Positions 22,520 through 49,933 of a stretch of 64,000 nucleotides of DNA are shown piece by piece (the first letter of the stretch is position 1; the number at the start of each line of letters is the position of its first letter). A program made the position numbers and the translations under genes. This DNA is from Dehalococcoidales bacterium. GTDB lineage: Bacteria > Chloroflexota > Dehalococcoidia > Dehalococcoidales > UBA5760. The DNA is taken from positions 3,035-67,034 of the forward strand of contig DAOULZ010000012.1 in assembly GCA_034414575.1 (NCBI GenBank), given 5' to 3'. The notes under the pieces are model-generated. The model did no database searches, was not told where the DNA came from, and saw only the letters and a program-made list of their open reading frames with translations.

Positions 22520-23818
22520 ATGAAGAAGGTATTGGTCTGGCTATCTATGGTGATTCTACTTATTCCGGTAACAGCCTGCTCCCAGCCGACAGCAAGTCCG
22601 GAAGGAGGTCCGGCTGTAGCCGGCGTAATACAATCAGACAAGCCGCGAGTGACCTCACCGCAGGTAAGTGAAACTGAACTAACGCCTCTGGTCGAGGGGA
22701 ATAACGCCTTCGCCTTCGAGCTCTATCAGGCACTCAATGGGGAGGATGACAATCTCTTCTACTCCCCCTACAGCATATCGCTGGCGTTGGTGATGACCTA
22801 TGCTGGCGCCCGAGGCGAGACCGAACAGCAGATGGCCGATACCCTCCATTTCACTCTCCCTCAAAACCGCCTGCATCCAGCCTTCAACAGCCTTGATATG
22901 GAGCTCGGGAAGCGTGGTGAGGGCGCCGAGGGGAAGGATGATGAGGGCTTTCGACTGAATATCGTTAATGCTATCTGGGGACAGAAAGGTTATCATTTCC
23001 TGCCCACTTTCCTTGACGTGCTGGCGGAGAACTACGGCGCCGGACTCAGAACCCTGGACTTTGCCGGAGCGCCGGAAGAGTCCCGCCTCATCATTAACGA
23101 CTGGGCCAGTGACCAGACGGAGGGTCGCATCGAAGAGCTGATACCAAAGGGCATGATTGATATACTCACCAGGCTTGTCCTCACCAATGCCATTTACTTC
23201 AACGCAGCCTGGCAGTACCCCTTTAGTGAAGGGGCAACCGTAGATAGCCAGTTCTATCTGCTTGACGGCGGAGCGGTAACCGCGCCCATGATGAGCCAGA
23301 CGGAGTCGTTCGGCTATGCCGAAGGTGATGACTATCAGGCGGTCGAGCTACTGTATGACGGTGGCGAACTATCGATGGTAATCCTGCTGCCGCGGGAGGG
23401 CCATTTCGAGGCGTTCGAAGAGTCGCTGGATGCCGAGCGAGTGGGCGCTATCATAGGCGCCCTGGAGCCAAGCCAGGTCGCCCTGGCTATACCCAAATTC
23501 GAGTTTGATTCAGCCTTCAAGATGAGGGAGACCCTTATAGCGATGGGTATGCCGGTGGCTTTTGCCGGAGACGCAGACTTTTCCGGGATGACAGGCGGTC
23601 GCGAACTGTTTATCTCGCAGGTGGTTCATAAGGCGTTTGTTTCGGTGGATGAAGCCGGTACGGAAGCAGCCGCGGCTACCGCAGTTATTATGAAGGTGAC
23701 AGCGCTGCCGACGACGCCGATTGAATTTACGGCCAATCGCCCCTTCATATTCCTGATTCGTGATATTGAGACCGACAGCCTGCTGTTCATAGGCCGTGTT
23801 TTGAACCCGGCTAGTTAA
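22520..23818 (+). CDS. serpin-family serine protease inhibitor, secreted/lipoprotein
   Basis: Signal peptide with Cys (PVTAC). Serpin body (FSPYSISLAL.M.Y.GA.GET). Inhibitory-type hinge EAGTEAAAATAV followed by FTANRPFIFLI. Confidence 0.9.
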   Translation: MKKVLVWLSMVILLIPVTACSQPTASPEGGPAVAGVIQSDKPRVTSPQVSETELTPLVEGNNAFAFELYQALNGEDDNLFYSPYSISLALVMTYAGARGETEQQMADTLHFTLPQNRLHPAFNSLDMELGKRGEGAEGKDDEGFRLNIVNAIWGQKGYHFLPTFLDVLAENYGAGLRTLDFAGAPEESRLIINDWASDQTEGRIEELIPKGMIDILTRLVLTNAIYFNAAWQYPFSEGATVDSQFYLLDGGAVTAPMMSQTESFGYAEGDDYQAVELLYDGGELSMVILLPREGHFEAFEESLDAERVGAIIGALEPSQVALAIPKFEFDSAFKMRETLIAMGMPVAFAGDADFSGMTGGRELFISQVVHKAFVSVDEAGTEAAAATAVIMKVTALPTTPIEFTANRPFIFLIRDIETDSLLFIGRVLNPAS

Positions 23819-33564: not shown

Positions 33565-35244
33565 ATGAAACGTCGTAAAATCAACTATATGCTGGCATCA
33601 GGCATTGCGGTGCTTCCCTTACTGGTGACAGTATTCATTGCTACCCCAGCCCAGGCTAAGGTTGAGAATGAGCTTGTCCTTGATCCAATCGAGGGTAAAC
33701 TCGGCGACAAAATTATTGTCACGGGTGAGGGCTTTGACGCTGGGACGTATTATTATCTTTACTTCTCTAGCGATGAGGCTGTTATAGGTAATTCCATTGA
33801 TGGAGATGTTACCCATTACGAGCTGTTGGAAAGGAATATCAGGACCACTGAGGCGACTGACTTGTTCCCCGGTGAATTTGACACTTATTTTTTAGTTCCT
33901 GATGCCCTTGGTAACGGAGCAGATGTAGAGGATGTGCATGGCGGTGAGTATTATGTTTATGTTACCTATCGCACCAGTAAACAGATACTGGCACTTGCCG
34001 TCCTCGAGGTGTATGGGGGTGAAATTGAGGTAGTCCCCGAAACTGCGGCGGTAGGTTCTGGGGTTACCATTAGCGGCCAGGGGCTCCGCCCGGATCAGAG
34101 TATCACTATTGAATACGATGGCAAGCAAGTTAACATAGAAAGTGGCGATGCCAAGACTGATGGTGACGGCCAATTTACCTGCGCTATTGTTATCCCGGAG
34201 TGTCCCAACGGAAGCTATACGGTGACTGCTATTGATGAGTCGGGTAACCGGCCTGAGACTGAGGTTAGTATAAAGCCTGAGATAACCTTAATCCCCACCT
34301 CGCAATATGTAGATAAAGTGGTAGAGGTTAGAGGTACCGGGTTTGGTGAGCGGGAGAATGTTACCGTCACGCTGGATGGTAAAAATATGACCACGATTCC
34401 GGTAACCCTGCATACTAATCGCCTTGGTAGTCTAGGTGGTGACTTCATTATCCCGCCCTATCCTATCTATACAGATGGTGCCATTGCTGAAGTGCGGGTC
34501 CGCGACGAAAGTGATCATACAGCCGGGGCTGAATTGACTGTTTTACCGATCCCGGCTGCCATCAGCTTAAGTCCAGCTACTAGCCAGAGCTCGCCGGGTC
34601 ATGTCGGTATGGAACTTACCGTTGGTGGTATCTGGTTTGTGGCTAATGCCCCAATTACCATCACCTATGATGACGCTGAACCCCTTACCGTTGCCACCAC
34701 TGAGGCTAGCGATGATAGGTATTTCTCGGTATCCTTTACGGTGCCGCCCAGTGCCCCGGGGAGTCATACCGTAACCGTCAACGATGGTATCAATAGTGTA
34801 AGCTCTGTCTTTAACATGGAGTCAGAGAAACCATTGACTCCAGTACTATTACTACCGACGGTTGCCGCCACCATCGACCCCGAGGCTTATTTTGACTGGA
34901 GGGACGTTAGCGACCCGAGTGGCATAGGCTATATCCTCCAGATTGGGGCCGATAGCGAGTTTGCCACTGTAGTTTTGGAGAAGAGGGAACTAGCTGACTC
35001 AGAATATATGCTTAATGAGGAGGAGAAACTCGAGCTAGTCGAGAGGGAGACTCCTTATTACTGGCGGGTTAAGGCAGTGGATGGTACCTTTAGTGAGAGC
35101 GAGTGGGCAATACTTGGCGCATTCTATGTTGGTGGTCCTCCAGGAGCATCATTGCCGAGCTGGATGAGATATTTATGGATTGGGCTTGGTAGTGCCCTGG
35201 CCGCTTTCTTTATAATAAGAATGCGGAGAAGGCAGGTCAAATAG
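33565..35244 (+). CDS. large secreted cell-surface protein with repeated Ig-like beta domains and C-terminal LPSW-TM-RMRRR anchor
   Basis: Signal peptide (ATPAQA). There are several domains of about 90 aa of the form G..V.V.G.GF ... Y.V.A.D. An FN3-like segment (YYWRVKAVDG) is followed by a C-terminal TM helix and a basic tail. Confidence 0.7.
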   Translation: MKRRKINYMLASGIAVLPLLVTVFIATPAQAKVENELVLDPIEGKLGDKIIVTGEGFDAGTYYYLYFSSDEAVIGNSIDGDVTHYELLERNIRTTEATDLFPGEFDTYFLVPDALGNGADVEDVHGGEYYVYVTYRTSKQILALAVLEVYGGEIEVVPETAAVGSGVTISGQGLRPDQSITIEYDGKQVNIESGDAKTDGDGQFTCAIVIPECPNGSYTVTAIDESGNRPETEVSIKPEITLIPTSQYVDKVVEVRGTGFGERENVTVTLDGKNMTTIPVTLHTNRLGSLGGDFIIPPYPIYTDGAIAEVRVRDESDHTAGAELTVLPIPAAISLSPATSQSSPGHVGMELTVGGIWFVANAPITITYDDAEPLTVATTEASDDRYFSVSFTVPPSAPGSHTVTVNDGINSVSSVFNMESEKPLTPVLLLPTVAATIDPEAYFDWRDVSDPSGIGYILQIGADSEFATVVLEKRELADSEYMLNEEEKLELVERETPYYWRVKAVDGTFSESEWAILGAFYVGGPPGASLPSWMRYLWIGLGSALAAFFIIRMRRRQVK

Positions 35245-36091: not shown

Positions 36092-36388
36092 GTGGATATG
36101 CCAAATCACAGCGAGATTGATCCTATGCTGACAACGAGCGAAGTAGCGCGACTGCTTAATGTGCATATCAATACGGTGAGACGGTGGAGTAATCAGGGGG
36201 TACTAAAGACATACCGAATCGGGGCACGTGGTGACCGGCGATTTCACCGGGACGATATTACTAGTTTCCTGTCACAGAAGTCGAAGATGGCTAGGTTGGA
36301 TACCAAGATGGAAATCCCCTCCTCGTTAGACCAAACGTCAGGAAGTCAAGAGAGCTTGTCAACATCCGTAGTCTGTGAAAGTAAGTAA
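36092..36388 (+). CDS. excisionase/MerR-type helix-turn-helix DNA-binding protein
   Basis: LTTSEVARLLNVHINTVRRWSNQGVLKTYRIG..GDRRF is the classic excisionase-family HTH. A GGAGGTG RBS precedes the ATG at 36098. Confidence 0.8.
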   Translation: MDMPNHSEIDPMLTTSEVARLLNVHINTVRRWSNQGVLKTYRIGARGDRRFHRDDITSFLSQKSKMARLDTKMEIPSSLDQTSGSQESLSTSVVCESK

Positions 36389-36411: not shown

Positions 36412-37092
36412 ATGAATAAAATCGTGATAATGATAATTGATGAGGAGTCTTTCTTTAGGGCTGGTGTGCGTCAGGCGCTGTCTCAGCAGCCGGACTTTGA
36501 GGTATTGGATTGCGATCCATCTAATGGTCCACTAGAGATGATTGAGGCCCACCTTCCCCATATTGCCCTGCTCGGCTCGGCCCTCGGTGCCCATAACGGG
36601 CTGGAGTTGGGAAGAAAGATTGCCCGTTTTTACCCAAATACTAGGGTAATCATGCTAAGTCCCAATCCTGATGACGAAGAGCTTTTTGAGGTTATTAAGA
36701 CGGCAGCCGTAGCCTGCTTAAATAGGAATACCGCTGTGGCAGATCTCATTAATACGATAAGACGGGCGTCTCGGGGTGAATATCCGATAAATGAGAGCCT
36801 TATGACGAGACCCAAGGTTGCCCAACGTGTGTTAAAGCAGTTTGAAGATATATCATCGATGGACAAGGATATTGAGACGGTAATCGCACCCCTCACCCGT
36901 CGCGAGACACAGATTCTGGACTACGTTGCTGAAGGCAACACAAATAAACAAATCGCCGATATCCTGGGCATTAGTGAGCAGACGATTAAGAGTCATGTCA
37001 GTGCCATCCTGCGTAAGCTGAATGCTAATGATAGAGCCCATGCTGTTGCCCTGGCCATCCGTAATGGTTGGATTTCGCCGGGTGAAAAGTAA
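36412..37092 (+). CDS. LuxR/NarL-family regulator with an aspartate-less (pseudo-)receiver domain
   Basis: C-terminal LuxR HTH (LTRRETQILDYVAEGNTNKQIADILGISEQTIKSHVSAILRKL). The receiver-like N-terminus has Gly where the phospho-acceptor Asp is expected (HIALLGSALGAHNGLE). Confidence 0.85.
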   Translation: MNKIVIMIIDEESFFRAGVRQALSQQPDFEVLDCDPSNGPLEMIEAHLPHIALLGSALGAHNGLELGRKIARFYPNTRVIMLSPNPDDEELFEVIKTAAVACLNRNTAVADLINTIRRASRGEYPINESLMTRPKVAQRVLKQFEDISSMDKDIETVIAPLTRRETQILDYVAEGNTNKQIADILGISEQTIKSHVSAILRKLNANDRAHAVALAIRNGWISPGEK

Positions 37093-37175: not shown

Positions 37176-39605
37176 GTGGCTAATCTGAGTAAAGAGAAGG
37201 TTTCGAGCAAAAATGATGAGCTTGATTTCCGCAAATTGGCGGACCCTGCTGCCTTTGAATCGCGGGAAGAGGGAGGCAAGGTGCCGCAATTAGAGCTTGA
37301 TTCAAAGCTAAAGGACCAGATTTGTGATAACCTTCGCAAGCAGGGATATGAAGTAACCGAGGAAGCTAGACTTGTCGGTAAATCAGGGGTCGAGCATACC
37401 TTCGATATTCTGGTGCAAAGGGACGATGGTTTCATCAGCTACACCATGGCAATTTGCACTACCGCTGGAGGTGATAGAGAGGCAGAGGTAAAAACTATTT
37501 TCAACTTCGCCAACAAGGCCTATGATTGCGGTATTATTGACCGGGTGCTTATTGCTGTCCCAGAGGTTAGTCCTGAGGCAAAGCAGCTGGCTAATAAACA
37601 GCGGATAAAGGTTATTGAAGCCGACAAGATGGTAACCGTGCTTGGCTCAAAGCCGGTACCGCAGGTTAAACCTGAGGAGCCACTTGGGTTTGAGACACGG
37701 GAGCAACTGGTGAAATCTTTGCTGAATCTCGGCTACAGGGTTGAGGAAAAAGCTAAGGTTCAGAGCCGATCTGGGGTTGAGTATAACTTTGATATACTGG
37801 CCCATATTGGTGAGGGCAGTGCTGCTCACAGCCTGGGGATAGACTTTTTGAGCGGGGAGAAGGAAGTAGATCTGGAGCAGGTATCGCTGTTTGATACTAA
37901 GGCCTATGAGGTTGGTATTGATGATAAAGTTATTGTTGTCTCACCAGTGCTTAGCCCGGAAGCAAAGCAATTCACCCAGCATCAGCGAATAAGGGTTTTT
38001 GAGCTGGGAACAAGCCCAACCTCTAAGGATTCAACTGATAAGGAGACACCTTCACCGTTAACATTGGCGGCAACAAAGCCAGATTCTGCTAAGGGTAAGA
38101 CCAAACAGCTACGGCAGATGGTTCAGCCCGAGGCGTTACAACTGATACCTGAGGTGATGGCAAGAAGGTATAATGCCGTACCGCTGACTCTCTCAGGTAG
38201 CACGTTAAAAGTAGCCATGGCCGATCCGACTGATATCTTTGCTCTGGAGGCTTTTTCAGCCCTGAGTAAAAAGCGGATTCAACCGGTAGGTGCCGATCCT
38301 AGAGAAGTCAGGGAGGCTATTGACTTTAACTACAAGGGGCATAGCGAGATTGAAAAGCAGATCGCTCATATCTCTATTCCGGCTGATGCCCTTGATGAGA
38401 GGCTGGCAATTGATGCGGCTATTGATGCCCCCCTGGCTCAGGCTCTCAACCTTATTATTGAGGAGGCAGTTCGGGCTCACTCGTCCGATATTCACATTGA
38501 GCCCGAAGAGGACAGGGTAAGAGTACGTTACCGCATTGATGGTACCCTTCAGGATATGATGTCTCTACCTCTGACAGTACATCGAGCCATTATTTCTCGA
38601 ATTAAGATTTTGGCTGATATGAATATTGCTGACCATCATCGTCCTCAGGATGGGCAGTTTTCTACTCAAGCCAAGGGGCGGGAGATAGATGTTCGTGTCG
38701 CTACCGGGCCTACTGTCTGCGGCGAGATGGCGGTACTGCGGCTCCTCGACAAAGCTCGGGCTACTTTGGGGTTATCAGAGCTTGGTTTCTTGGTGGATAG
38801 CCAGGAAAAATATGAAAGTTTGCTCAAGGTGCCCTATGGCATGATCTTAATTAGTGGTCCTACCGGGGCTGGTAAGACTACTACCTTATATGCTTCCATC
38901 AATTCCCTTGATACCATGGGACGGAACATAATTACTATTGAGGACCCGGCTGAGTATCGGTTTAAGGATATTAATCAGATTCAGGTTAATCCTCAGGCTG
39001 GTATTACCTTTGCCCGAGGACTGCGGTCGATACTCCGTCTTGACCCCGATGTCATAATGGTCGGCGAAATACGTGATACTGAGACGACTCAAATAGCGGT
39101 TCAATCAGCTCTGACGGGGCATCTTATGCTCTCCTCTATTCATGCTAGTGATGCGGCTGGTGTGCTCACCCGTCTCATTGACCTCGGGGTGGAACCCTTC
39201 TTAATCGCTTCGTCTGTTATTGGTGTTGTCGCTCAGCGGATGGTACGTCGCATCTGTCCTGATTGCAGTCACCTAATTGAGGCGCCCCTGGTGGAAAGAC
39301 TGGCTTATCAAAGAGAGCTGGGGGAGGAGAAGACCGAATTTCTGTATGGCACCGGTTGTGCCACCTGTGCTTATACCGGTTATCTGGGCCGAACCGGAAT
39401 CTTTGAGATTCTGTTGATGAGTGATAGTGTCCGAGCTCTGGTTACTAATCAAGCTAATAGCAGTGAGATTCGAGCTAAGGCGCTTGAGGAAGGGATGAGG
39501 TCTATGATGAACGATGGTATGCGCAAGGTGCAAGCCGGTATTACTACTCCGTCTGAAGTACTGCGTAGCGCTTACTCCCCTGACCTTAATGTAGACTTAG
39601 CATAG
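37176..39605 (+). CDS. pilB: type IV pilus extension ATPase (GspE/PilB family) with an unusual duplicated N-terminal domain
   Basis: T2SSE_N domain (LKVAMADPTD), Walker A GPTGAGKTTT, Asp/His boxes and a tetracysteine motif (CPDC...CATC). Residues ~43-150 and ~172-277 are two copies of a degenerate nuclease-like domain. Confidence 0.92.
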   Translation: MANLSKEKVSSKNDELDFRKLADPAAFESREEGGKVPQLELDSKLKDQICDNLRKQGYEVTEEARLVGKSGVEHTFDILVQRDDGFISYTMAICTTAGGDREAEVKTIFNFANKAYDCGIIDRVLIAVPEVSPEAKQLANKQRIKVIEADKMVTVLGSKPVPQVKPEEPLGFETREQLVKSLLNLGYRVEEKAKVQSRSGVEYNFDILAHIGEGSAAHSLGIDFLSGEKEVDLEQVSLFDTKAYEVGIDDKVIVVSPVLSPEAKQFTQHQRIRVFELGTSPTSKDSTDKETPSPLTLAATKPDSAKGKTKQLRQMVQPEALQLIPEVMARRYNAVPLTLSGSTLKVAMADPTDIFALEAFSALSKKRIQPVGADPREVREAIDFNYKGHSEIEKQIAHISIPADALDERLAIDAAIDAPLAQALNLIIEEAVRAHSSDIHIEPEEDRVRVRYRIDGTLQDMMSLPLTVHRAIISRIKILADMNIADHHRPQDGQFSTQAKGREIDVRVATGPTVCGEMAVLRLLDKARATLGLSELGFLVDSQEKYESLLKVPYGMILISGPTGAGKTTTLYASINSLDTMGRNIITIEDPAEYRFKDINQIQVNPQAGITFARGLRSILRLDPDVIMVGEIRDTETTQIAVQSALTGHLMLSSIHASDAAGVLTRLIDLGVEPFLIASSVIGVVAQRMVRRICPDCSHLIEAPLVERLAYQRELGEEKTEFLYGTGCATCAYTGYLGRTGIFEILLMSDSVRALVTNQANSSEIRAKALEEGMRSMMNDGMRKVQAGITTPSEVLRSAYSPDLNVDLA

Positions 39606-39614
39606 AGGTGGAAT

Positions 39615-40823
39615 ATGGAATATTCTTATGTGGCTTACACAAAAGATAGAAGATTGGTGAAGGGTAAGCTCTCAGCGGCCAACCAAGAGGCGGCAGCTGG
39701 CCTGTTAAGCTACGGTGGCTACCAGGTGCTTAGCCTCAAGCAGGTGGTTCCCTTCTTTGATACGGAAAAACTGGGCATCCGCTTCTCCCGGGTAAAGCCG
39801 ACGGAAATAGTAATGTTCTCCCGCCAGTTGGCTTTGCTGCTTGAAGCCGGCACCGATATTGTTACCTCTTTAGAGTTATTGCAAAACCAGACAACCAACC
39901 ACACCCTGCAGAGGGTGATTGGTGAGGTGGTTGCTGACATTCGTGGTGGTAGCTCGCTATCAGTAGCACTAAGTAAGCACCCTCGGGCTTTCTCAGAATT
40001 GTATCACCGGGCAATATCGGCTGGTGAGCAGGGTGGTAATCTGGAAGAGACGCTGAGGCAGATGGCAAATCATATCGAGAGAGCTACCGTGACTCAAAAG
40101 AAGATAAGCGGGGCGCTACGCTATCCCATCATTGTTTTTGTGGTCGCGATTCTAGTGGTCGGGGTGCTGGTTACCTTTGTGCTGCCTCGTTTTACTGCCC
40201 TGTACGCTGCGTTTGGCACTGACTTGCCAACGCTACCGAGGATGCTTATGGGAATTACCGATTGGTTTGGGCATTACGGCCTCTGGCTGGTGTTGGGGAT
40301 AGTCGCCGCCATCGGCATAACCTTTGTTTATATCAAAACTCCGGCTGGCAAGACCTGGTGGCATAGAACGCTACTCAATCTGCCGGTGTTTGGGCGTATT
40401 AACCTCCTTAATCAGCTTTCCCGCGCTTGTCGCACCATAGCGCTACTATTTAAGGTCGGTGTGCCGTTACCGGAGATTATGGCGGTAGCTATTTATGGCA
40501 CCACCAATAATATTGTGGCTCAGAATCTGACTGAGGTGCAGCAGGAGTTACTCAAGGGTGAGGGCTTGTCTCGTCCTATGGCCCGGCGGAAGCTGTTTCT
40601 ACCCCTGATGGTGCAGATGGTCGGGGTCGGTGAGGAAACCGGTAACCTTGATAAAACGCTAACTACGGTGGCGCAGGCCTATGAGGCTGAGGCTGAGGAC
40701 AAGACCAGTTCTGCGGTAGCCATGATTCAGCCAGCGATGACCTTAGTTATCGGTGGCATTGTTGCCTTTATTGCGATTGCTCTGGTGCAATCCATGTATT
40801 CTGTATATGGAGCATTCGGTTAA
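39615..40823 (+). CDS. pilC: type IV pilus platform protein (GspF/PilC family)
   Basis: 402 aa with two GspF repeats and three TM segments, immediately after pilB. Confidence 0.92.
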   Translation: MEYSYVAYTKDRRLVKGKLSAANQEAAAGLLSYGGYQVLSLKQVVPFFDTEKLGIRFSRVKPTEIVMFSRQLALLLEAGTDIVTSLELLQNQTTNHTLQRVIGEVVADIRGGSSLSVALSKHPRAFSELYHRAISAGEQGGNLEETLRQMANHIERATVTQKKISGALRYPIIVFVVAILVVGVLVTFVLPRFTALYAAFGTDLPTLPRMLMGITDWFGHYGLWLVLGIVAAIGITFVYIKTPAGKTWWHRTLLNLPVFGRINLLNQLSRACRTIALLFKVGVPLPEIMAVAIYGTTNNIVAQNLTEVQQELLKGEGLSRPMARRKLFLPLMVQMVGVGEETGNLDKTLTTVAQAYEAEAEDKTSSAVAMIQPAMTLVIGGIVAFIAIALVQSMYSVYGAFG

Positions 40824-40842
40824 TAGTGGGGACTGAGGCTTG

Positions 40843-41226
40843 ATGAAAAGAGAAAGGGGTTTTTCATTCATTGAGGTGGTAATTGCCCTGGCGGTGCTGG
40901 GGATAATTGCGGTTGGTTTCCTTAGTGGTTTGGGTACTGCCTCTAAGGGGCTGCTTATTGCTAATGAGCGGGAGACGGCTAATAACCTTGCCGAAGCTCA
41001 GATAGAGAATGTCAAAAAGCAAGCTTACGATAGCACCAATAATCCACCGCAATATTCCCTGATGCCTGGCATTCCCGGTAACTTTAGCATAGACCAGCCT
41101 TTAGCAGAGAGGCTGGACCCGGATCTTGATGGTTTCGATGATGATGATGGCATTCAAAAGATAACGGTAACCGTTAGGCACGGTAGTAAAGAAGTATTAA
41201 CACTGGAAGACTATAAGGTGAACTAA
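40843..41226 (+). CDS. prepilin-type N-terminal cleavage/methylation domain protein (minor pilin)
   Basis: MKRERG|FSFIEVVIALAVLGII class III signal peptide. Confidence 0.85.
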   Translation: MKRERGFSFIEVVIALAVLGIIAVGFLSGLGTASKGLLIANERETANNLAEAQIENVKKQAYDSTNNPPQYSLMPGIPGNFSIDQPLAERLDPDLDGFDDDDGIQKITVTVRHGSKEVLTLEDYKVN

Positions 41227-41227
41227 A

Positions 41228-41758
41228 ATGTGGCGTAAATTTGGCCTGATAAATAGGAACCAGAGAGGGTTCACGATGATAGAGATGATCGTGGCCATCG
41301 CCATTAGCAGTGCTATCGGCGGTGGTATACTCTTGGGCATTTATCAGACCAGCAGTTATCAAGCTATGGACAAGGCTCGCATGAATTGCGTTAAGAATTT
41401 GGAGAACGCCATCCATTATGTAGTTCAGGATGCCCAGATGGCTCAGAAGATTGAGCCAGCCGCAGCCCCGGACCCAGATGGTTTCGACCTAACCCTGACT
41501 TGGGTAGAGTGGGACAATACTCAGAATGTGGTTACATATAGCATTGTGAGTAACGAATTAAAACGTAGTCATTCTATCAATGGTGGAGACCCCAAAGAGA
41601 ATATATTAGCTCGCTATATAAACTCTGACCCGGCTGAGACTAATTGCAGGTATACCGGCGGCGTGCTCAGTCTGAAACTTACGGCAACTATAATTGGGTT
41701 TCCTAAAGAGATAAGTGAGACCAGGGATGTTGAAATCATACCGAGGCCTGATTGGTAA
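41228..41758 (+). CDS. prepilin-type N-terminal cleavage/methylation domain protein (minor pilin)
   Basis: NQRG|FTMIEMIVAIAISS class III signal peptide. Confidence 0.85.
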   Translation: MWRKFGLINRNQRGFTMIEMIVAIAISSAIGGGILLGIYQTSSYQAMDKARMNCVKNLENAIHYVVQDAQMAQKIEPAAAPDPDGFDLTLTWVEWDNTQNVVTYSIVSNELKRSHSINGGDPKENILARYINSDPAETNCRYTGGVLSLKLTATIIGFPKEISETRDVEIIPRPDW

Positions 41759-41771
41759 GGGGAGGTGTAGT

Positions 41772-43439
41772 ATGATGGGTAGAATGATAAAGACAATACG
41801 ACATAAAATGGAAGGCAGACAGCGGGGCTATGTGTATATTCTGGTATTGGTCTTCTTATTGATAGGAGCGCTTATGATTCCACCCCTCCTGGAATTTATG
41901 GGTACCGGGATATGGTCAGGCCCCATATTTGAGCAGAAGACAGATGAAATATACGCCTGTGATGCCGGTATTGACGATGCTATCTGGCAGATTAAATATG
42001 AGAACATGTCCACCATGTTTTCTGACTACGATGAATATGACTATGACGCGGTCTGGTCCTATCCGCTTGCTGAAAATATAAACGATGAAGGCGTGGACGT
42101 TACCATCCAGAATGTCTGGGTGCCACAGAATATTTCACCTCTCGACAAAGAGGACATGAGGGATATCATTGAGGGTACCGACGAGGCTGGTTGCCGGATT
42201 AGGGTGAACGGCAGCGCCACCGCTTCCTCGGAGTACCGGATCAGGATAGATATTATCCCAGAGGAGCCGTGGGACTTGAGAGTAGAGTCGATCGGTATCT
42301 GGCTGCCTTCAGGCTTTAGCTACGTTGACGATTCAAGCAATCTTGAAGACTCGATGGAGCCCTATTATTCAGACCCTGACGTCTATGCCTATGCCGGGGG
42401 AGAGGCGGTTATTTGGAGCTTTGGTCTGCTCGAATTTGACCAGTTGCCGCCGGACGGGTCTCAGGAAAGTGCCATCGTCGAATTCAAGTATACCTCGGAG
42501 ACAGCACGGGAGCTGGTGACGGTCTCATGGATTGATACGAAAAACGTGGGGCCGGCGGGGATGCAAATCCCCTTCTCCTGGGATGATGATACCAAGGTCT
42601 TTGACATTACCTCATCGAGCTCTGGTGGGACCACTATTGAGTCCAACGTCTATCTGAACGCCAGCTACTCATCATTCCTTGAGAACGCCATTACTACGCC
42701 GGGAGAGGTTGATTGTTCGCCGAATACGACTGTGAATGGAATTATAGAGTGTCCTCCAGATGGATTTGATGAGCCGTCCGATGGCGATTGGGAATACCAA
42801 GAGTATGATGAGGACTGGCCCGATACCGAGCAGTGGCGCCAGTTCTTTGAGAATGATGCCGCTGGGGCTCCTGACCCTGGTTCGCCTGTTGATCTCAAAG
42901 ATTACGATGACGACGATGACCATATCGGACCATGGTATCGACCGGATGATTTAGATATCAAGAATACTCAAGATAACTTGGATACCATGATACTCTACGG
43001 AACTATTTATGTCGGTGATGGGGCCGGGGGTGATGACTGTGACCTTACTTTTCTGCAGCCCGGGGCTCCGAAGGCTTACACCATTGACCTTAACTATAAT
43101 ACCATCTTTGCTGAGGGGGAGATAGATTTCCCCTCCGACAAGATCACGCTCACCGGGTCGGGGTGTATTATTGCTGTTGGGGACGTCTTTTTCCACCCGA
43201 ATATAGAAGCGGACGAAAATGATTTCATTTTCGTGTGTTCCCTAGAGGGCACGGTAACCTTCAATCCGGGGGGCATCTTCTACGGGTCTGTCGCCGGGCA
43301 GGAAGTAGTTGGCATGCAGCCCGGTACCACCATTACCTGGACGCCGCCGCCAGGTGGGCTGAACCTGCCGGGGATGGGGGGAAGTGGCACCGGTGGTTTC
43401 GGCAGCAACATATCAAAATATACCTGGAAGATTGAATAG
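41772..43439 (+). CDS. large acidic PilX-N-like pilus-associated protein
   Basis: Start at the ATG after GGGGAGGTG. The N-terminal RQRGYVYILVLVFLLIGALM resembles PilX_N anchors but has no Glu5. The body is long and D/E-rich, with a Gly-rich C-terminus. Confidence 0.6.
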   Translation: MMGRMIKTIRHKMEGRQRGYVYILVLVFLLIGALMIPPLLEFMGTGIWSGPIFEQKTDEIYACDAGIDDAIWQIKYENMSTMFSDYDEYDYDAVWSYPLAENINDEGVDVTIQNVWVPQNISPLDKEDMRDIIEGTDEAGCRIRVNGSATASSEYRIRIDIIPEEPWDLRVESIGIWLPSGFSYVDDSSNLEDSMEPYYSDPDVYAYAGGEAVIWSFGLLEFDQLPPDGSQESAIVEFKYTSETARELVTVSWIDTKNVGPAGMQIPFSWDDDTKVFDITSSSSGGTTIESNVYLNASYSSFLENAITTPGEVDCSPNTTVNGIIECPPDGFDEPSDGDWEYQEYDEDWPDTEQWRQFFENDAAGAPDPGSPVDLKDYDDDDDHIGPWYRPDDLDIKNTQDNLDTMILYGTIYVGDGAGGDDCDLTFLQPGAPKAYTIDLNYNTIFAEGEIDFPSDKITLTGSGCIIAVGDVFFHPNIEADENDFIFVCSLEGTVTFNPGGIFYGSVAGQEVVGMQPGTTITWTPPPGGLNLPGMGGSGTGGFGSNISKYTWKIE

Positions 43440-43448
43440 GGGAGACTT

Positions 43449-44090
43449 ATGAAATTTGGTAAGACAGCTCAGTTAGTTCTGGCAATTGGTATTTTCGCGA
43501 TTGCGATTATCTTTCTCTACCGCATGAATGCCGCGCGAGCGAGCGAGTACGAGCAGCTCAATACCCAGCTAGCTGCGGCCCAGGCTCTTCTGCCTGAGAT
43601 CGCTGCCGAAAGCGAGGAGCTGGAAAGCCGTCTTAGCCAGCTACAGGTTGAGCTGACTCAGGCTAAGGCCTCGCTTAGCCAGGGTAAGGCAGGGTTCCCC
43701 GATTCAATAGATAGCATTAGATACGACGAGCTATTCTTCCAGATGGCTAGTGACCGTGACCTGGAGATGATGAGCCTAGACACTTCAGAGCCAGCCGAGC
43801 AAAAAGCGGGGGAGGAAGTTACTTTTACTGTTACCACTTTTGATATGCAAGTGAAAGGTTTGGTGGCTGATATCCTTGATTTCGTTAACGGCATAGCCAT
43901 CGGTGATGACTTTACCACGGCTACCGTGGAGCTGGTGTCTATCACAGTTCCAGAGCCGCTAACTGCTTACGAGGAAGAGCATGGGTTAGGTGGTCAAGAG
44001 ACAGAGGAGGAAGGGGAAGAGGAGGAAGGGGAAACAGGAGCACCGTTAGCTACGATAAGAGTGGATATCTATAGTTATCGAGGGGAGTAG
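43449..44090 (+). CDS. PilO-like pilus assembly protein (TM plus coiled coil) with poly-Glu tail
   Basis: N-terminal TM helix, then a coiled coil (EYEQLNTQLAAAQ...LQVELTQAKASL). Its position between the minor pilins and pilM fits. The C-terminus is EEEGEEEEGE. Confidence 0.55.
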   Translation: MKFGKTAQLVLAIGIFAIAIIFLYRMNAARASEYEQLNTQLAAAQALLPEIAAESEELESRLSQLQVELTQAKASLSQGKAGFPDSIDSIRYDELFFQMASDRDLEMMSLDTSEPAEQKAGEEVTFTVTTFDMQVKGLVADILDFVNGIAIGDDFTTATVELVSITVPEPLTAYEEEHGLGGQETEEEGEEEEGETGAPLATIRVDIYSYRGE

Positions 44091-44093
44091 AAT

Positions 44094-45608
44094 ATGTCCG
44101 AAGTCACTCTATTTATTGAAGATAGTGCTATCAAGCTGCTGGTGGCGAGAGGCCAGCGGGTGGAAAAGTGGGCCAAACTACCGCTGGAGCCAGGGCTGGT
44201 TAGCGACGGCTTAATCCTTGATGAAACTCAGGTAGCCGACCGGATCCGAGAGCTCTTTAATCTGCAGAAGGTGGGGGCTAGAACCGCTGTCGCTGCTTTG
44301 AGCGGATTCAATTCGGTATATCGCTTGATTTCGCTGCCTGAACTACCGTCCACAATTCTTGCTGAAGCGGTAGAGCAGGAGGCAGCTCGGGTGGTACCCG
44401 TGCCCATGGATCAGGTCTATCTCTCGTACCAGCTTATGCCCGCCCCGGCTGGGGAGACACTGATTTTCCTGGCTGCTTTTCCGCGAAGCAATACCGATGC
44501 TTTGCTCCGGACTCTGAAGAAGGCGGGGCTTAGGGTAGATGTTGTGGATTTAGCTCCTTTGGCTTTGTGTCGCACCGTTGATGCGCCGGAAGCGATAGTT
44601 GTCAATGCTAGTTCGGCTAGTCTTGATATTGCCATTATGGTGGAAAGGGTACCCCAGGTAATTCGCAGTCTTTCTCTTCCTGGTGAGGCGCAGTCGCTAT
44701 CGGAGCGGCTTACACCTATTGTTGAAGAGATTAATCGCACTATTGCCTTCTATAATTCTAGTCATCGGGATAAGCCGATAGAAGCGACGGTACCTATATT
44801 TGTCTCTGGTGAACTGGCTCAAGCTCCAGATACCTGGCAGTTGCTTAGTGGTACGGTAGGCTATCCTGTTTCGGCCTTGCCATCACCGATGGAACCACTT
44901 GAGGGTTTTGACCCCAGCCAGTTTATGGTTAATATTGGGCTGGTTCTCAAGCAGCTACCTTTGGAGAAGGTGGGAACTAACCTATCGATAGTAAACTTCA
45001 ATGCTCTGCCGCAGGCTGAAAAGCCCAAGAAGAAGGTATCTCCAGTTAGCATTCTTCTGCCCATTATTATTGTCCTGGGCTGCGGTGGGGTCTTCTATAT
45101 GTATAACCTTGGCCGGAATGCTGAGGCTCGTAATGAACTTTTGCGTTCCCATCTGGAGTTTACCCAGAGCCAAATTCCTGAGCAACAGGAGCTAAAGACT
45201 TCTCTTGAGGAGCAGCTTGCCGAGATAGAACCCCAGATTGAGCCCATAAAGACTGAGGCCGATACCTTTGATGCTACGTTCACTACTTTGGAAGAGGGGC
45301 GTAACCAGATGGACCTGGATGTGACTCGGATTTCGAATCTGACACCGGAAGATGTAGCCCTAGTTTATGCCAGTAGTGACGAGATAACGGGATATGCCTC
45401 ACCGATATCTCAAGCTAGCATTGATCATAGCGGTAGCACGGCAACGGTGATCGGTAGGAGCCAGGACATAGATGCAATCTTTCAGTATGCTAAAGACTTA
45501 AGGGCTAGCGGTGGATTCTCCGAGGTTATTATTTCGTCAATAGAGGCCTACGAATCTGAAGACGGAGCAATTAAGGGATATAACTTTAAGTTTATCCTTA
45601 CTAAGTAG
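44094..45608 (+). CDS. PilM-PilN fusion protein (actin-like ATPase domain + TM + coiled coil)
   Basis: The N-terminal ~320 aa have the PilM pattern. They are followed by the TM helix VSILLPIIIVLGCGGVFYMY, a PilN-like coiled coil and a periplasmic-type domain. Confidence 0.7.
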   Translation: MSEVTLFIEDSAIKLLVARGQRVEKWAKLPLEPGLVSDGLILDETQVADRIRELFNLQKVGARTAVAALSGFNSVYRLISLPELPSTILAEAVEQEAARVVPVPMDQVYLSYQLMPAPAGETLIFLAAFPRSNTDALLRTLKKAGLRVDVVDLAPLALCRTVDAPEAIVVNASSASLDIAIMVERVPQVIRSLSLPGEAQSLSERLTPIVEEINRTIAFYNSSHRDKPIEATVPIFVSGELAQAPDTWQLLSGTVGYPVSALPSPMEPLEGFDPSQFMVNIGLVLKQLPLEKVGTNLSIVNFNALPQAEKPKKKVSPVSILLPIIIVLGCGGVFYMYNLGRNAEARNELLRSHLEFTQSQIPEQQELKTSLEEQLAEIEPQIEPIKTEADTFDATFTTLEEGRNQMDLDVTRISNLTPEDVALVYASSDEITGYASPISQASIDHSGSTATVIGRSQDIDAIFQYAKDLRASGGFSEVIISSIEAYESEDGAIKGYNFKFILTK

Positions 45609-45621
45609 AGGGGGTGAGAGT

Positions 45622-46722
45622 ATGGATATTTTTTCTTTGCTTCATACAGCGGCATCAAAGGGGGCGTCAGACTTGCATTTGGTTGTTTCCAGCCCTCCCT
45701 TGTTACGCGTCAATGGTGCGCTTGAGCCAGTAGACGGTACCAAGCCGCTAACTGCCAACGAGATAAACCAGGCTTTTCTTCAGATAACTACCCCTGAGCA
45801 AAGAGAAAGCTTTCACCACCATCTGGAGCTTGATTTCAACTATACCCTGGCTGATGTTGGGCAGCTTCGTTGCAACGCCGCTCAGCAGCGGGGGGCTATC
45901 AGCCTTGCGGTGCGTTTGTTGCCGGCAAAAGTTCCTACCATAGATGACCTTGAGCTGCCAGCAATATATAAGGAGCTTTCCCTGAAGCAGAGGGGGCTGA
46001 TAATAGTTACCGGGCCTACTGGCAGTGGTAAATCAACCTCTCAGGCGGCTATGATTCAGCACTTGAATGAAAATGAAAGTCGTCATGTGGTTACTATTGA
46101 GGATCCCATTGAATACATCCATCCCAGTGTTAAGTGTGCCATAACACAGCGCCAACTAGGTAGTGATACCCTGTCCTTTGCTGAGGCGCTAAGGCGTGTC
46201 CTGAGACAAGACCCAGATGTGATTCTGGTGGGCGAGATGAGAGACTTGGACACAGCGGCTGCGGTGCTTTCTATCGCTGAGACCGGGCATTTGATACTGA
46301 CCACCGGTCATGCTCCCAGTGCCAGCCAGGCAGTAGAGAGGGTCATAGACCTGTTTCCACCTCATGAGCGTCCTTTAGCCCAAGCGCGGCTGGCGTCTCT
46401 CTTGATAGCGGTGCTTTTTCAGACGCTTGTTCCCCGGGCTGACGGCTCAGGGAGGATAGCCGCTATCGAGATCCTGCTGGCTAATGCCGCGGCCAAAAAC
46501 CTAATTCGTGAAGGCAAAACCTATCAATTACCCAATGTAATCCGCACTCAGCGGGAGCTCGGCATGATTTCGCTTGACGAGGCTCTGGTTAGCCTGTATC
46601 TTAAGCGAATCATCAGCGGTGAGAGCCTGCTTACTTTCTGTAGCGACCATAAGGAAGTGGAAAAGCTTGTTGGTGGGGTGGTAGGCAGGGGTAAAGAAAT
46701 CCACGTAGAAAGCTTAAGCTAG
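45622..46722 (+). CDS. pilT: type IV pilus retraction ATPase (twitching motility protein)
   Basis: 366 aa with ASDLHL at the N-terminus, Walker A GPTGSGKST, and the PilT-type VGEMRD and GHL..TT.H boxes. Confidence 0.92.
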   Translation: MDIFSLLHTAASKGASDLHLVVSSPPLLRVNGALEPVDGTKPLTANEINQAFLQITTPEQRESFHHHLELDFNYTLADVGQLRCNAAQQRGAISLAVRLLPAKVPTIDDLELPAIYKELSLKQRGLIIVTGPTGSGKSTSQAAMIQHLNENESRHVVTIEDPIEYIHPSVKCAITQRQLGSDTLSFAEALRRVLRQDPDVILVGEMRDLDTAAAVLSIAETGHLILTTGHAPSASQAVERVIDLFPPHERPLAQARLASLLIAVLFQTLVPRADGSGRIAAIEILLANAAAKNLIREGKTYQLPNVIRTQRELGMISLDEALVSLYLKRIISGESLLTFCSDHKEVEKLVGGVVGRGKEIHVESLS

Positions 46723-46950: not shown

Positions 46951-47382
46951 CTAGCTGGAGGGAGTTACTTTTACGGCGCCAGTAGTCGCATCGATGTTGT
47001 ATGGTTGGGAGAGCGTATCTCCAGATTCGAAGCCGAGGATGTAGCTATCCAGAGTGACGGTATTTGTACCGTCTGTTGCGGTTACCGCGTGAACTTCGTC
47101 ATAGGTATCAACACCTGTACCGCCGGAGCAACTACTGGCATTGACGTCAGCCATCATGGCAATCACTGCTGTCTGGACATTGGCTAGCTCCGTGTCCTTG
47201 GCCTCCTGCTCACCCTCGCTCATGAACTTGGCGATGTTAGGGATGGCGACTGCGGCCAGAACACCCAGAATGGCAACCACCACGAGCAGCTCAATCAGGG
47301 TGAAACCCTTCTGCCCGCGACGGAGCTTCCTGGTAAACCTCATCTCGCCGTAGTGAAGCCTTCTCATTAATGTCTTCATCAT
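46951..47382 (-). CDS. major pilin candidate (prepilin-type N-terminal cleavage/methylation domain) with long leader
   Basis: ...RRGQKG|FTLIELLVVVAILGVLAAVAIP. The start is set at the ATG after AAGGAGGTG, giving a 27-aa leader. An internal Met would give 13 aa. Confidence 0.85.
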   Translation of the reverse strand: MMKTLMRRLHYGEMRFTRKLRRGQKGFTLIELLVVVAILGVLAAVAIPNIAKFMSEGEQEAKDTELANVQTAVIAMMADVNASSCSGGTGVDTYDEVHAVTATDGTNTVTLDSYILGFESGDTLSQPYNIDATTGAVKVTPSS

Positions 47383-47420
47383 TATTTGTTTCACCTCCTT
47401 TTCTCAGTCTATGATGAAGT

Positions 47421-47652: not shown

Positions 47653-49020
47653 CTAGCCAGATGATCCTAATTTGTCAACCTCAAAGACTCTGATGCGCTG
47701 CCTTTCGGCAAACTGCTTGGCTTCCTGGCTGAGCCCTGGAGAAGCAATCAGTACCTTGTTCTGGATTCCGATGTCATAGGCCTTATCATCAAAATCGAAT
47801 ACTTTGCCCAGTTCTATTGGCTTATCGCTGGCCTCCATGCCGATAGCAACCTGATGCGTGACAATGCCGTCGTCTCTGATTGCCAGAATATCAATATTAT
47901 GTTCGGCACCAGACCGGCCCCTAGCTTTTGCCTTCTTCTTTACCTCATAGGCATATTGCTTCAGGTATTCTACCAGATGAGAAGTGGACTTGAATTCGAA
48001 TGGCTCCTTCTTAACTCTTACATCCAGTGGTGGTATAGCTCTGGCGAGTACTGCATCCAAATCTTTAACCGGTAGCACCGTAATTCTCTGGTGACTGGCA
48101 AATGTCGCTGCTGCCTCGTCTAATGGGGGATCAACCAGCAAGACCTTCTCACGAATGCCAGTATCATAGGCTTTATCATCAAATTCACATACGTCTCGCA
48201 GGGATACTTTATCCCCAGCCGCCTTAATCCCAATGGCAATTTCATGGGTTATAATGCCGTCATCTCTGGTTGCCAAGATATCAATATTGTGTTCGGCACC
48301 AGACCGGCCCTTTCTGGTAGCATTTTCGATTACTTCATAGCCGCACCGTTTCAGAAACTCTGTGAGCTGGGCCTTAGGTTTAAATTCAAACTCCAGCCAG
48401 CTTCTTTTGGCTTCATCAATGCTGTAGGAGTAGATATTTACCTCAGTAATCTTGTCCTCACTGGTGATTGAGGAGCATCTTAGGCAGCGCCATTTTGTTA
48501 CCGGTATCTGGAAAACGTCACCGCAGACGTGACACTTACGCATCAGGCCCAGGCTTCGATAGTCACTATCGAGTTTACGTAGCTCTGCTTTACACTTGGG
48601 ACATATGAGTCTGCCCTGAGCTATAAACTCATCTTCAAGCCCGACATATCCACAGATAGAGTGTTCTAGGACCCTGCCTCGAGCGATATTACCAGAACCA
48701 CACTTGGGACAGTTAGTGGTTGGTCTCAAATTTACTGACCGACACTGAGGGCAATGGAGAAACCGGTCAAAGAAGTCCTTATTTAGGATACCCTTATTAA
48801 CCAGGGACTCCAGCATTGATACTGCTTCCTGCCCTTTAGCCTCCAGTTTTTCTTCGATAAAGGGATAGGTAAAACCCAGTTCGCTGGTAAAATCAAGTTC
48901 GGGTCTAATATCAATAATCCCCTCCGCCAGCATGGTGGCTACTAGCTTAGTGGCTCTTTTGTCATTCCCTAAGCTGGGTAGAGCTTTAGCTGCTCTCTGG
49001 AAATCATCGCCTTTCACCAT
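47653..49020 (-). CDS. multi-zinc-ribbon protein with two C-terminal copies of the PilB-type degenerate nuclease-like domain
   Basis: Start at the ATG after GGAGGTGG. The helical N-terminus is followed by CPQC..CPKC, CPKC and CHVC..CLRC ribbons. Two repeats of about 110 aa share GRSGAEHNIDILA.RDDGI.TH..AIG ... FDDKAYD.GI..KVL ... QRI.V with the PilB N-terminus. Confidence 0.75.
   Translation of the reverse strand: MVKGDDFQRAAKALPSLGNDKRATKLVATMLAEGIIDIRPELDFTSELGFTYPFIEEKLEAKGQEAVSMLESLVNKGILNKDFFDRFLHCPQCRSVNLRPTTNCPKCGSGNIARGRVLEHSICGYVGLEDEFIAQGRLICPKCKAELRKLDSDYRSLGLMRKCHVCGDVFQIPVTKWRCLRCSSITSEDKITEVNIYSYSIDEAKRSWLEFEFKPKAQLTEFLKRCGYEVIENATRKGRSGAEHNIDILATRDDGIITHEIAIGIKAAGDKVSLRDVCEFDDKAYDTGIREKVLLVDPPLDEAAATFASHQRITVLPVKDLDAVLARAIPPLDVRVKKEPFEFKSTSHLVEYLKQYAYEVKKKAKARGRSGAEHNIDILAIRDDGIVTHQVAIGMEASDKPIELGKVFDFDDKAYDIGIQNKVLIASPGLSQEAKQFAERQRIRVFEVDKLGSSG
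47863..47920. repeat. DNA-level direct repeat, copy A (within domain repeat 4)
   Basis: 58 nt matching 48253-48310 at 53/58 positions, offset by 390 nt. Confidence 0.8.
48253..48310. repeat. DNA-level direct repeat, copy B (within domain repeat 3)
   Basis: See copy A. The pair encodes the G.SGAEHNIDILA.RDDG core of both domain copies. Confidence 0.8.
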
Positions 49021-49135
49021 TTTCCACCTCCGCCAATTGAATCTGTGGATAAAGTATACTGCTGTCAAGTGCTAAAATCAATAACCTGCTTTTCCTATTG
49101 ACTGGACTCTGAAAAGCAGTCAAAATAGAGACTAG

Positions 49136-49933
49136 ATGGAAAACGCCCTGCTAGCCATTTTTACCACATTGGGTATGGTTATAGCTAGTTTCCTCAATGT
49201 CGTGATTGACCGATTACCCAATAAGGAGTCACTTATTTTTCCTCCCTCTCATTGTCCCTCCTGTCAGCATCGCCTGGCGGTAAGGGACCTGGTGCCTGTC
49301 TTCAGCTACCTGTGGCTACGTGGTCGCTGTCGTTATTGTCAGGCTCCTATCCCCCGGCGACTGCTGGGGATGGAAATTGGCCTTGGGGCTCTATTTCCGC
49401 TTCTTTACTGGCATTATGGTTTGAGTGTTGAATTAGGAATTGTTGCCTACTGCTGCTGCCTGTTCATTGTGCTCATGGTTATTGATTGGGAGCACGGGCT
49501 TATCCTCAACAAGATTGTGTACCCGGCCATGATAGCAGCCGTGCTTATCAGTATCTTTCTAGCCGGGAGCATAAGCGTTTTCATGCTGGGTAACAGCATT
49601 ATCCTCCTACCGCCGGGAATCGCTCAGGCGGCCATCGGTGGCGCGGTTGGCTTTGGCATAACCTTGTTGGTAGTTCTTCTCTCCAGAGGTGGCATGGGTT
49701 GGGGGGACGTTAAGATGGCGGCCCTGATCGGGCTGGTTATTGGCTTTCCGCTAGTGTTTTTTACATTAATCATGGCGGCAATCTTAGGCGGTTTGGTGGC
49801 GGTGATTTTGCTCCTGCTCAAGAAAAAGAAGCGGAAAGAGGCAATCCCCTTCGGTCCGGCCCTGGCTATCGCCACTATCGTTACCTTAATCTGGGGAAAA
49901 GGCATCCTCATCTGGTGGCTGGGAATATTCTAA
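49136..49933 (+). CDS. pilD: prepilin peptidase (A24 family)
   Basis: N-terminal CPSC...CRYC zinc motif, multiple TM helices and the catalytic-Asp motif GWGDVKMAALIG. Confidence 0.92.
   Translation: MENALLAIFTTLGMVIASFLNVVIDRLPNKESLIFPPSHCPSCQHRLAVRDLVPVFSYLWLRGRCRYCQAPIPRRLLGMEIGLGALFPLLYWHYGLSVELGIVAYCCCLFIVLMVIDWEHGLILNKIVYPAMIAAVLISIFLAGSISVFMLGNSIILLPPGIAQAAIGGAVGFGITLLVVLLSRGGMGWGDVKMAALIGLVIGFPLVFFTLIMAAILGGLVAVILLLLKKKKRKEAIPFGPALAIATIVTLIWGKGILIWWLGIF

Follow-up and report, generated by a model that had tools for sequence, protein, structure and literature searches.

Tandem restriction-endonuclease-fold domains on a type IV pilus extension ATPase of Dehalococcoidales and on a TackOD1 protein of the same pilus cluster

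What are two nuclease-like domains doing at the front of a pilus motor? The question is raised by pilB (37176..39605, plus strand), the gene of a type IV pilus extension ATPase in a 64,000-nucleotide stretch of the Dehalococcoidales contig DAOULZ010000012.1 (called the window for simplicity). The gene opens with a GTG start and encodes 809 residues (T2SSE 424.5 bits, MshEN/GSPII 61.8 bits); an exact twin of the protein is already annotated in NCBI data. The original prediction, made from the sequence alone, had placed two copies of a degenerate NucS/Hjc-like domain at 37302-38006, i.e. PilB residues 43-277 in the coordinates of the open reading frame (ORF), and had described them as probably non-catalytic. 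We found that the N-terminal ~290 residues of PilB are a tandem pair of Mrr_cat-type domains with a restriction-endonuclease (REase) fold. The pair is a portable two-domain module, here named REase2, which recurs in the same cluster on a protein with a TackOD1 zinc-ribbon domain.

Repeat 1 covers PilB residues ~41-155 (37296..37640, plus strand), and repeat 2, the more degenerate of the two, residues ~169-282 (37680..38021, plus strand). Both lie ahead of the GSPII/MshEN and T2SSE regions and are paralogous, as had been proposed: they share 35% identity and 59% positives over 125 residues (BLASTP E=9e-26), and in phmmer searches each retrieves the other at E ~1e-20, far beyond chance. Mrr_cat (PF04471, gathering score 21) scored 28.8 bits on full-length PilB and 33.0 bits on its N-terminal 315 residues, with the match in repeat 1 at residues 47-154; repeat 2 gave a weak Mrr_cat_2 match (residues 205-284). 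The NucS and Hjc families of Pfam showed no match in PilB at E<=1.

An AlphaFold2 model of PilB residues 31-290, computed from 51 sequences, reached a mean predicted local distance difference test (pLDDT) of 86.3 and a predicted TM-score (pTM) of 0.75, each repeat having the order H-E-E-E-H-E-H-E of helices (H) and strands (E). Foldseek comparison of this model with the PDB returned almost exclusively PD-(D/E)xK domains at probability 1.0. The best match was AF1548 (1y88; probability 1.0, E=7e-6, root-mean-square deviation 3.0 Å over 103 columns), a structure placed in the Mrr_cat group by a superfamily survey (PMC3424549). It was followed by the nuclease domains of R2 retrotransposon proteins, Can2/Cdn1, MspJI, NucS/EndoMS and Bax1, and then by VC1899 and the Rpb5 N-domain; NucS/EndoMS ranked 12th or lower (E 2-5e-3, e.g. 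2vld and 5gkj). A PDB sequence search with the N-terminal 315 residues yielded chance-level matches only and a profile search of PDB sequences found AF1548 at E=0.41, so that the family assignment comes from Pfam and fold comparison, two independent routes which both support the REase fold. The predicted fold is thus upheld, and the nearest family is Mrr_cat/AF1548, not NucS/Hjc.

With Mrr_cat and AF1548 the repeats share the fold, a recognisable sequence family, the G-(K/R)-S-G loop, the strand-2 Asp and the C-terminal helix-strand unit. REase2 differs from them in lacking the (D/E/Q)xK half-site, in its tandem duplication and acidic character, and in being attached to a secretion-type ATPase or a TackOD1 zinc ribbon instead of a DNA-recognition domain. 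NucS/EndoMS and Hjc belong to the same PD-(D/E)xK superfamily, and NucS/EndoMS appeared among the Foldseek matches at probability 1.0, but ranked under AF1548, R2, Can2 and MspJI; in contrast to REase2, both NucS and Hjc have complete motifs and are active. Pfam already flags PF04471 and NCBI names some fragments 'restriction endonuclease', so that the fold assignment by itself is not new.

Does the module still cut? To follow the active-site positions we aligned, with a single-repeat hidden Markov model, 164 repeats from 58 PilB and 24 TackOD1 proteins, which fall into four classes (repeats 1 and 2 of PilB, and repeats 1 and 2 of the TackOD1 partner proteins). The strand-2 Asp (FDILA) is nearly invariant, being kept in 51/58 and 58/58 first and second PilB repeats and in 24/24 and 23/24 first and second partner repeats. 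At the strand-3 Lys, first PilB repeats have A/T/S, second PilB repeats L, first partner repeats A/L and second partner repeats L, with Lys itself in five of the 24 first repeats of TackOD1 proteins, that of the window among them. The acidic column of (D/E)xK is occupied by C/G, D, G and G/N in the same order of classes. The strings quoted for this position in the original prediction are present in the window (AICTT and GIDFL in PilB repeats 1 and 2, AIGIK and AIGME in those of the partner), and its claim that the E-x-K was lost agrees with the whole alignment, across which the catalytic D...(D/E/Q)-x-K motif of Mrr_cat and the PD-(D/E)xK superfamily is incomplete. In a profile alignment, IECKF of AF1548 faces lgidil of the repeats, and the (D/E)xK motif is missing in either register. 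Judged by these residues, the module is unlikely to be a canonical nuclease.

Other positions are strongly conserved. All four classes share S-G-x-E-H-x-F-D, a D-D-G turn, K-A-Y-D-x-G, K/R82 and E-A-x-Q-F-A-x-x-Q-R-I, and the core of this signature (SG-x-EH-x-FD and K-x-YD) is retained in single-repeat relatives at only ~30% identity. Compared with repeat 1, PilB repeat 2 has H34 replaced by Y and a degenerate DDG turn and R102. The near-invariance of E33, H34, D37, K73, Y75 and D76 leaves room for an active enzyme with a rearranged site, in which E33 and D37 would bind metal and a relocated Lys (K73 of helix 2, or K/R82) would complete a phosphodiesterase site. Active-site residues are known to migrate in the PD-(D/E)xK superfamily, including in some restriction enzymes, and Mrr itself is reported to have a novel configuration (reference 105 of PMC3424549). 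We nevertheless consider such an enzyme very unlikely: strand 3 carries neither a conserved acidic residue nor a conserved Lys in three of the four classes, and it would endanger the cell if each subunit of a housekeeping motor bore a nuclease. The window PilB, moreover, scores 21.3 bits with the 'inactive REase' family NA-iREase1 (PF22722), under its gathering score of 27, a cut-off that some homologues pass (33.4 bits for P0071). That NACHT-associated family resembles REase2 as an inactivated REase serving as accessory module of a nucleoside triphosphatase (NTPase); the NTPase of the window differs in being a hexamer of the PilT/VirB11 class, not a STAND NTPase, and in belonging to pilus assembly, not to a conflict system.

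If the module does not cut, it might be a mere spacer or the leftover of a fusion accident, without function for PilB. Some relatives manage with a short PilB, and the greater degeneration of repeat 2 would suit such decay. The ratio of nonsynonymous to synonymous substitution rates (dN/dS) contradicts it: between the window and five orthologues it is 0.10-0.18 for the module, even at dS 0.65-1.9, and 0.06-0.10 for the ATPase core. The module is kept in 58/58 full-length PilBs of the sampled clade, and it does not share the free divergence of the adjacent linker, which is the fastest-evolving segment of PilB (25-79% identity among orthologues). The module is thus under purifying selection and functional rather than decaying, and we regard an inert passenger as the least credible of the explanations considered here.

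The linker (PilB residues ~283-318; 38022..38129, plus strand) is rich in P, S, T and K and predicted to be flexible, with pLDDT <50 at the end of the model. Downstream of the REase pair and this linker, PilB is an otherwise ordinary GSPII-N2-C-terminal-domain extension ATPase. The C-terminal subdomain of GSPII/MshEN (N1 domain; 38121..38336, plus strand) matches PF05157 at residues 316-387 (profile positions 13-85 of 90) and lacks the cyclic di-GMP (c-di-GMP) motif; the T2SSE core (N2 and C-terminal domain; 38421..39566, plus strand) matches PF00437 at residues 416-797 and contains a Walker A sequence GPTGAGKT at residue 561 and a tetracysteine zinc motif CPDC...CATC at residue 694. With 502.5 bits to TIGR02538 PilB (cut-off 675.65) and 529.6 bits to TIGR02533 GspE (cut-off 630.25), the protein stays below both equivalog cut-offs; it is a divergent member of the PilB/GspE-type extension ATPases, named PilB here from its gene context. 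The 24-residue c-di-GMP motif of MshEN, searched for with a relaxed regular expression, [RKPN]hGxxhhxx[GAS]hhxxxxhxxxhxx[QNKRYWST], taken from PMC5013675, gave 0 matches in PilB, the partner or any ORF of the window. As the original prediction had anticipated, no characterised accessory domain of PilB fits the repeats, and nuclease-like domains go unmentioned in a review of PilB cofactors from 2024 (PMC11656802).

Where else does the module occur? When the six-frame ORFs of the window were searched with either PilB repeat, the sole other protein was encoded by the ORF 47653..49068 on the minus strand. It carries two copies (phmmer E 1e-19 to 6e-28), in keeping with the partner protein of the original prediction. 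The computed ORF opens at a TTG (471 residues), and the true start is the ATG at 49020, as homologues and an exact database match indicate, giving a gene at 47653..49020 and a protein of 455 residues. Its TackOD1 domain (PF18551; 48418..48963, minus strand; residues 36-217 of the 471-residue reading), with multiple CxxC zinc ribbons, scores 146.1 bits (cut-off 32) and has 11 invariant Cys over 23 homologues, and Mrr_cat scores 50.4 bits on the same protein. Repeat 1 of the partner (48049..48384, minus strand) matches PilB repeat 1 at E=1e-22, and repeat 2 (47665..48003, minus strand) matches the PilB repeats at E=3e-26 and 6e-28. The AlphaFold2 model of the partner (pLDDT 87) has the same top Foldseek match, 1y88; the TackOD1 half of the model has no PDB neighbour in Foldseek, every match coming from the REase half.

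In thaumarchaeal response regulators TackOD1 has been defined as an output domain, and as arCOG06883 it was noted in thaumarchaeal pilus loci (PMC5847659, PMC4858521). The window partner is a member of this family, and the two papers give neither a link to family 2 glycosyltransferases nor a C-terminal module fused to PilB; a nuclease-like domain following TackOD1 is not mentioned in either of them (0 occurrences of 'endonuclease' or 'Mrr'). Nearly all TackOD1 proteins that we retrieved nevertheless align over 93-100% of a TackOD1-REase query, even where Pfam gives TackOD1 alone, so TackOD1 proteins almost always bear a nuclease-fold domain that is absent from these descriptions. REase2 ordinarily forms the C-terminal half of these zinc-ribbon proteins, which are cytoplasmic.

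When species-representative genomes were scanned, 150 relatives of the module came to light, nearly all of them from metagenome-assembled genomes (MAGs) of Dehalococcoidia/Dehalococcoidales; the fusion to PilB was found in Dehalococcoidia MAGs. We sorted 79 loci, obtained from 80 of the 150 relatives, by gene arrangement. Type A (55/79) resembles the window, with the order (MerR)-REC-LuxR, REase2-pilB, pilC, and in most of these loci the MerR and REC-LuxR pair precedes REase2-pilB. In type B (14/79) a TackOD1-REase2 gene lies directly upstream of a ~520-residue pilB without the module, the gap being 15-35 nt in the 10 loci measured, and in type C (5/79) TackOD1-REase2 lies 2-3 kb upstream of REase2-pilB. 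TackOD1-REase2 is the lone module-bearing gene in the other 5/79, four of which (L060, L063, L064 and L078) resemble the window in having pilD and/or pilin genes next to it, and one (L056) has no typed neighbour. Three further MAGs contain both TackOD1-REase2 and REase2-pilB, on separate contigs. The pilus gene order of the window (pilC, pilM/N, pilT, pilins, prepilin peptidase) recurs in at least 50 related loci. These data show that in this Dehalococcoidia lineage the whole module sits also on PilB, with the TackOD1-REase2 gene staying in the same pilus cluster.

How did the module reach PilB? In trees of the repeats, the first and the second repeats of PilB each form a monophyletic group, the latter as sister to the second partner repeats. 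First repeats of PilB and partner have a mean identity of 0.41, their second repeats one of 0.45, and the two PilB repeats one of 0.34. Trees and identities together fit a transfer of the two-repeat module as one block, and a single origin of the module on PilB is supported by the repeat tree. A single fusion event did not emerge from the tree of the PilB core, which places the five long PilBs of type C (L058, L059, L066, L072 and L073) among the short ones, contrary to the repeat tree, in which the REase repeats of these five fall in with the repeats of every other long PilB. If both trees are taken at face value, the conflict implies repeated loss of the module or recombination.

Some of these loci have features of their own. 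In the type C locus L059 (11037-13168), four paralogous genes for proteins of 131-141 residues lie between TackOD1-REase2 and REase2-pilB; their sole Pfam signal is a sub-threshold match to MAPKK1_Int (17.9 bits), which hints at a Roadblock/LC7-like fold. In L035 (9842-12432), REase2-pilB is split into two overlapping ORFs, probably by a frameshift or sequencing error.

What, then, could REase2 do for the motor? From the company that it keeps in these genes, it is probably a regulatory add-on of PilB; the binding or sensing role put forward in the original prediction is likewise inferred. A regulatory character of the donor family is indicated by a further architecture, the REC-linker-TackOD1-REase response regulators (one or two REase copies, 630-980 residues), and by the role of TackOD1 as a response-regulator output. 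We tentatively favour a physical association between the PilB-borne module and the TackOD1-REase2 partner that would couple the motor to the partner, a reading to which we give somewhat less than an even chance. REase2 would then be a non-cutting regulatory input or docking domain tying the motor to the TackOD1 signalling protein, with a contact either from REase fold to REase fold or from REase2 to TackOD1, and the zinc-ribbon regulator would gate hexamer recruitment or ATPase activity. Where the regulator gene directly precedes a short pilB, the arrangement is in trans, and the fusion would make it cis in part. Pairing between inactive nuclease-fold paralogues is known from XPF-ERCC1, Mus81-Eme1 and the tRNA-splicing endonuclease. 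We favour docking because, when two proteins of one system carry paralogous nuclease-fold domains, these typically pair, and because gene adjacency alternating with fusion is a classic sign of interacting partners.

Trans-acting regulators of PilB such as PilZ-FimX, PATAN-REC and MglA/SgmX offer a likeness, as cytoplasmic proteins that gate the localisation or activity of the motor, several of them being response regulators (PMC11656802). Their domains are unrelated to REase2, and none of them gives a domain that is also fused to PilB (PMC11656802).

Would docking also account for the module outside the pilus loci? Among 1.8 billion representative proteins, a search with a profile retrieved 930 matches at E<=1e-3 and 85 at E<=1e-30. 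In the 80 metagenome loci of REC-TackOD1-REase2 (L080-L159) there are almost no pilus genes nearby, and 66 of them contain a processive family 2 glycosyltransferase (GT2) synthase of ~500 residues (Glycos_transf_2/Chitin_synth_2), which is why we rejected a restriction of TackOD1-REase2 to pilus loci. The one locus inspected for this, L083, has the synthase directly downstream of REC-TackOD1-REase2. Genes for polysaccharide deacetylase, UDP-glucose dehydrogenase, epimerase and tetratricopeptide-repeat proteins are often near the synthase, and TackOD1 proteins with one REase copy (311-387 residues) adjoin such a synthase too, in either orientation. From the pilus and GT2 neighbourhoods we conclude that the TackOD1-REase unit is a widespread companion of two envelope polymer machines. 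TackOD1-REase, with or without REC, stands beside GT2 synthases of ~400-510 residues (Chitin_synth_2-like) in L080-L159 and L160-L164 (e.g. L083 12238-13758 and L153 11045-12466); this looks like a conserved, undescribed regulator-synthase pair. Neither PilZ nor MshEN was seen on the two GT2 synthases scanned. In L081-L117, a second REC gene of ~240 residues lies almost always directly upstream of REC-TackOD1-REase2 (e.g. L083 9212-9922).

Several points weigh against docking. In the model the repeats of a chain pack together (pTM 0.75), which may already occupy in cis the interface by which REases usually dimerise; loci with a short PilB offer no PilB-borne module with which the partner could pair; and the PilB-core tree does not resolve one single fusion event. 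No second REase-bearing protein was seen beside the GT2 synthases in the loci examined, and homotypic pairing therefore cannot be the general mode of the family. The conservation of SG-x-EH-x-FD and K-x-YD in all contexts, finally, fits a pocket at least as well as an interface.

The last point leads to a second explanation, in which the degenerate site would be a pocket for a ligand of phosphoester or nucleotide type, possibly a second messenger. The same sensor would steer different effectors (TackOD1 outputs, or here PilB directly), as MshEN_N or PilZ do elsewhere. It would better explain why an identical module with one polar signature spans the pilus, GT2 and REC contexts, and it fits the predicted packing of the two repeats within one chain. 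S-G-x-E-H-x-F-D, with the canonical metal-binding Asp in it, and K-x-Y-D persist in the four repeat classes and in distant single-repeat proteins next to GT2 genes; with three settings as unrelated as a pilus motor, a TackOD1 protein and REC-TackOD1, a common bound thing is the most economical assumption. The conserved set is kept in PilB repeat 1 and partly lost in repeat 2, as is common in tandem pseudo-dimers with one working site.

The clients point in the same direction, as the c-di-GMP receptor MshEN is fused to the same pair, ATPases of type IV pili and type II secretion on the one hand and glycosyltransferases of the GT2 kind on the other (PMC5013675). REase2 shares with MshEN these clients and the position N-terminal to the GSPII subdomain of an extension ATPase, and differs from it in an unrelated fold. 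With a GAF-GGDEF(GGEEF)-HD-GYP protein (57400-59937, plus strand), c-di-GMP turnover is encoded in the window, although the PilB there is without the MshEN_N motif. Against a ligand-sensing module stand the conserved residues themselves, which could be structural, e.g. in contacts between strand 2 and helix 2. We know of no precedent for a PD-(D/E)xK domain as a second-messenger receptor. Some TackOD1-REase loci also look archaeal, such as L163 with its DUF1616 and KaiC-like genes, and to our knowledge c-di-GMP is not established in archaea. Weighing these points, we think small-ligand sensing a possibility but a rather doubtful one, and slightly favour docking over it.

Could the fold have kept its affinity for DNA or RNA? 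Nucleic-acid binding is its ancestral role, and every strong Foldseek neighbour acts on nucleic acids. TackOD1-REase2 would in that case be a transcription factor, and the PilB module would tether DNA, e.g. in competence, or hold the motor to the nucleoid. REC-TackOD1-REase2 genes adjoin operons that they might control, as DNA-binding response regulators usually do, and the N-terminal region of the partner shows in the AlphaFold2 model a helix-helix-helix-strand pattern that would suit a winged helix. The repeats, however, are acidic in every class, with a median net charge of -2 to -4 and an isoelectric point of 5.2-5.8; a promoter-binding domain on a cytoplasmic hexameric motor lacks an obvious reason, and the locus already has DNA-binding regulators of the MerR and REC-LuxR types. 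Nucleic-acid binding is therefore improbable in our view, though less so than an enzyme with a rearranged site.

The preferred docking of REase2 to the TackOD1 protein would have consequences for how signals reach the motor. The N-terminal regions of PilB are the entry of signals to the pilus motor, so far c-di-GMP through MshEN and partners such as PilZ-FimX. If REase2 is an input module, it would be a third, unrelated kind, derived from a restriction-enzyme family and with an obvious candidate partner in the same locus. TackOD1, an orphan among response-regulator outputs, gains a connection with a motor ATPase and with polysaccharide synthases that can be put to the test, and the hosts are uncultured Dehalococcoidia. 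In the literature searched, we found no description of a nuclease-fold domain on a PilB-type motor, of its pairing with TackOD1 or of a link between TackOD1-REase and GT2; PilB with REase2 thus appears to be an extension ATPase with a previously undescribed accessory module. A broader proposal can be made, to which we attach little confidence: the TackOD1-REase unit, or REase2 alone when fused to PilB, might be a new receptor or regulatory class that uses the old nuclease site as a pocket for a nucleotide signal and controls pilus motors and GT2 exopolysaccharide synthases post-translationally in bacteria and archaea, as an analogue of MshEN and PilZ.

The remaining genes around pilB make up, with it, a complete type IV pilus cluster. 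Upstream on the plus strand lie a MerR-type helix-turn-helix gene (HTH_17/MerR; 36092..36388) and, directly before pilB, a REC-LuxR response regulator gene (Response_reg and GerE; 36412..37092). The rest of the operon (39615..46722, plus strand) comprises pilC (T2SSF 191 bits), two pseudopilins (N_methyl twice), two unassigned ORFs, a pilM-pilN fusion (PilM_2, PilN) and pilT (a PilT-sized T2SSE protein of 366 residues). A pilin gene (46951..47394, minus strand; N_methyl 41.5 bits) lies between the operon and the TackOD1-REase2 gene, beyond which lies the prepilin peptidase gene pilD (49136..49933, plus strand; A24_N_bact 111 bits, Peptidase_A24 52 bits). The PilM-PilN fusion is one protein of 504 residues (44094-45608, plus strand), with PilM_2 at residues 19-168 and PilN at 442-498. 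In the 288-residue relative P0023, REase-like repeats run into a MerR-type helix-turn-helix that resembles the ORF 36092-36388 of the window, either by fusion or as an assembly chimera.

Further from the motor, the GGDEF/HD-GYP protein mentioned above is encoded ~8 kb past the pilus cluster; its 845 residues comprise a seven-transmembrane part (HisKA_7TM), GAF, GGDEF with an intact GGEEF, and HD-GYP. Just upstream of the pilus locus (33565-35244, plus strand) lies the gene of a secreted 559-residue protein with TIG/Ig-like domains and a C-terminal membrane anchor, and a 1243-residue protein encoded upstream of the pilus genes in L059 (5200-8931, minus strand) resembles it in its C-terminal part. 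Serpins are uncommon in bacteria, and the window encodes a full-length one at 22520-23818 (plus strand, 390 bits).

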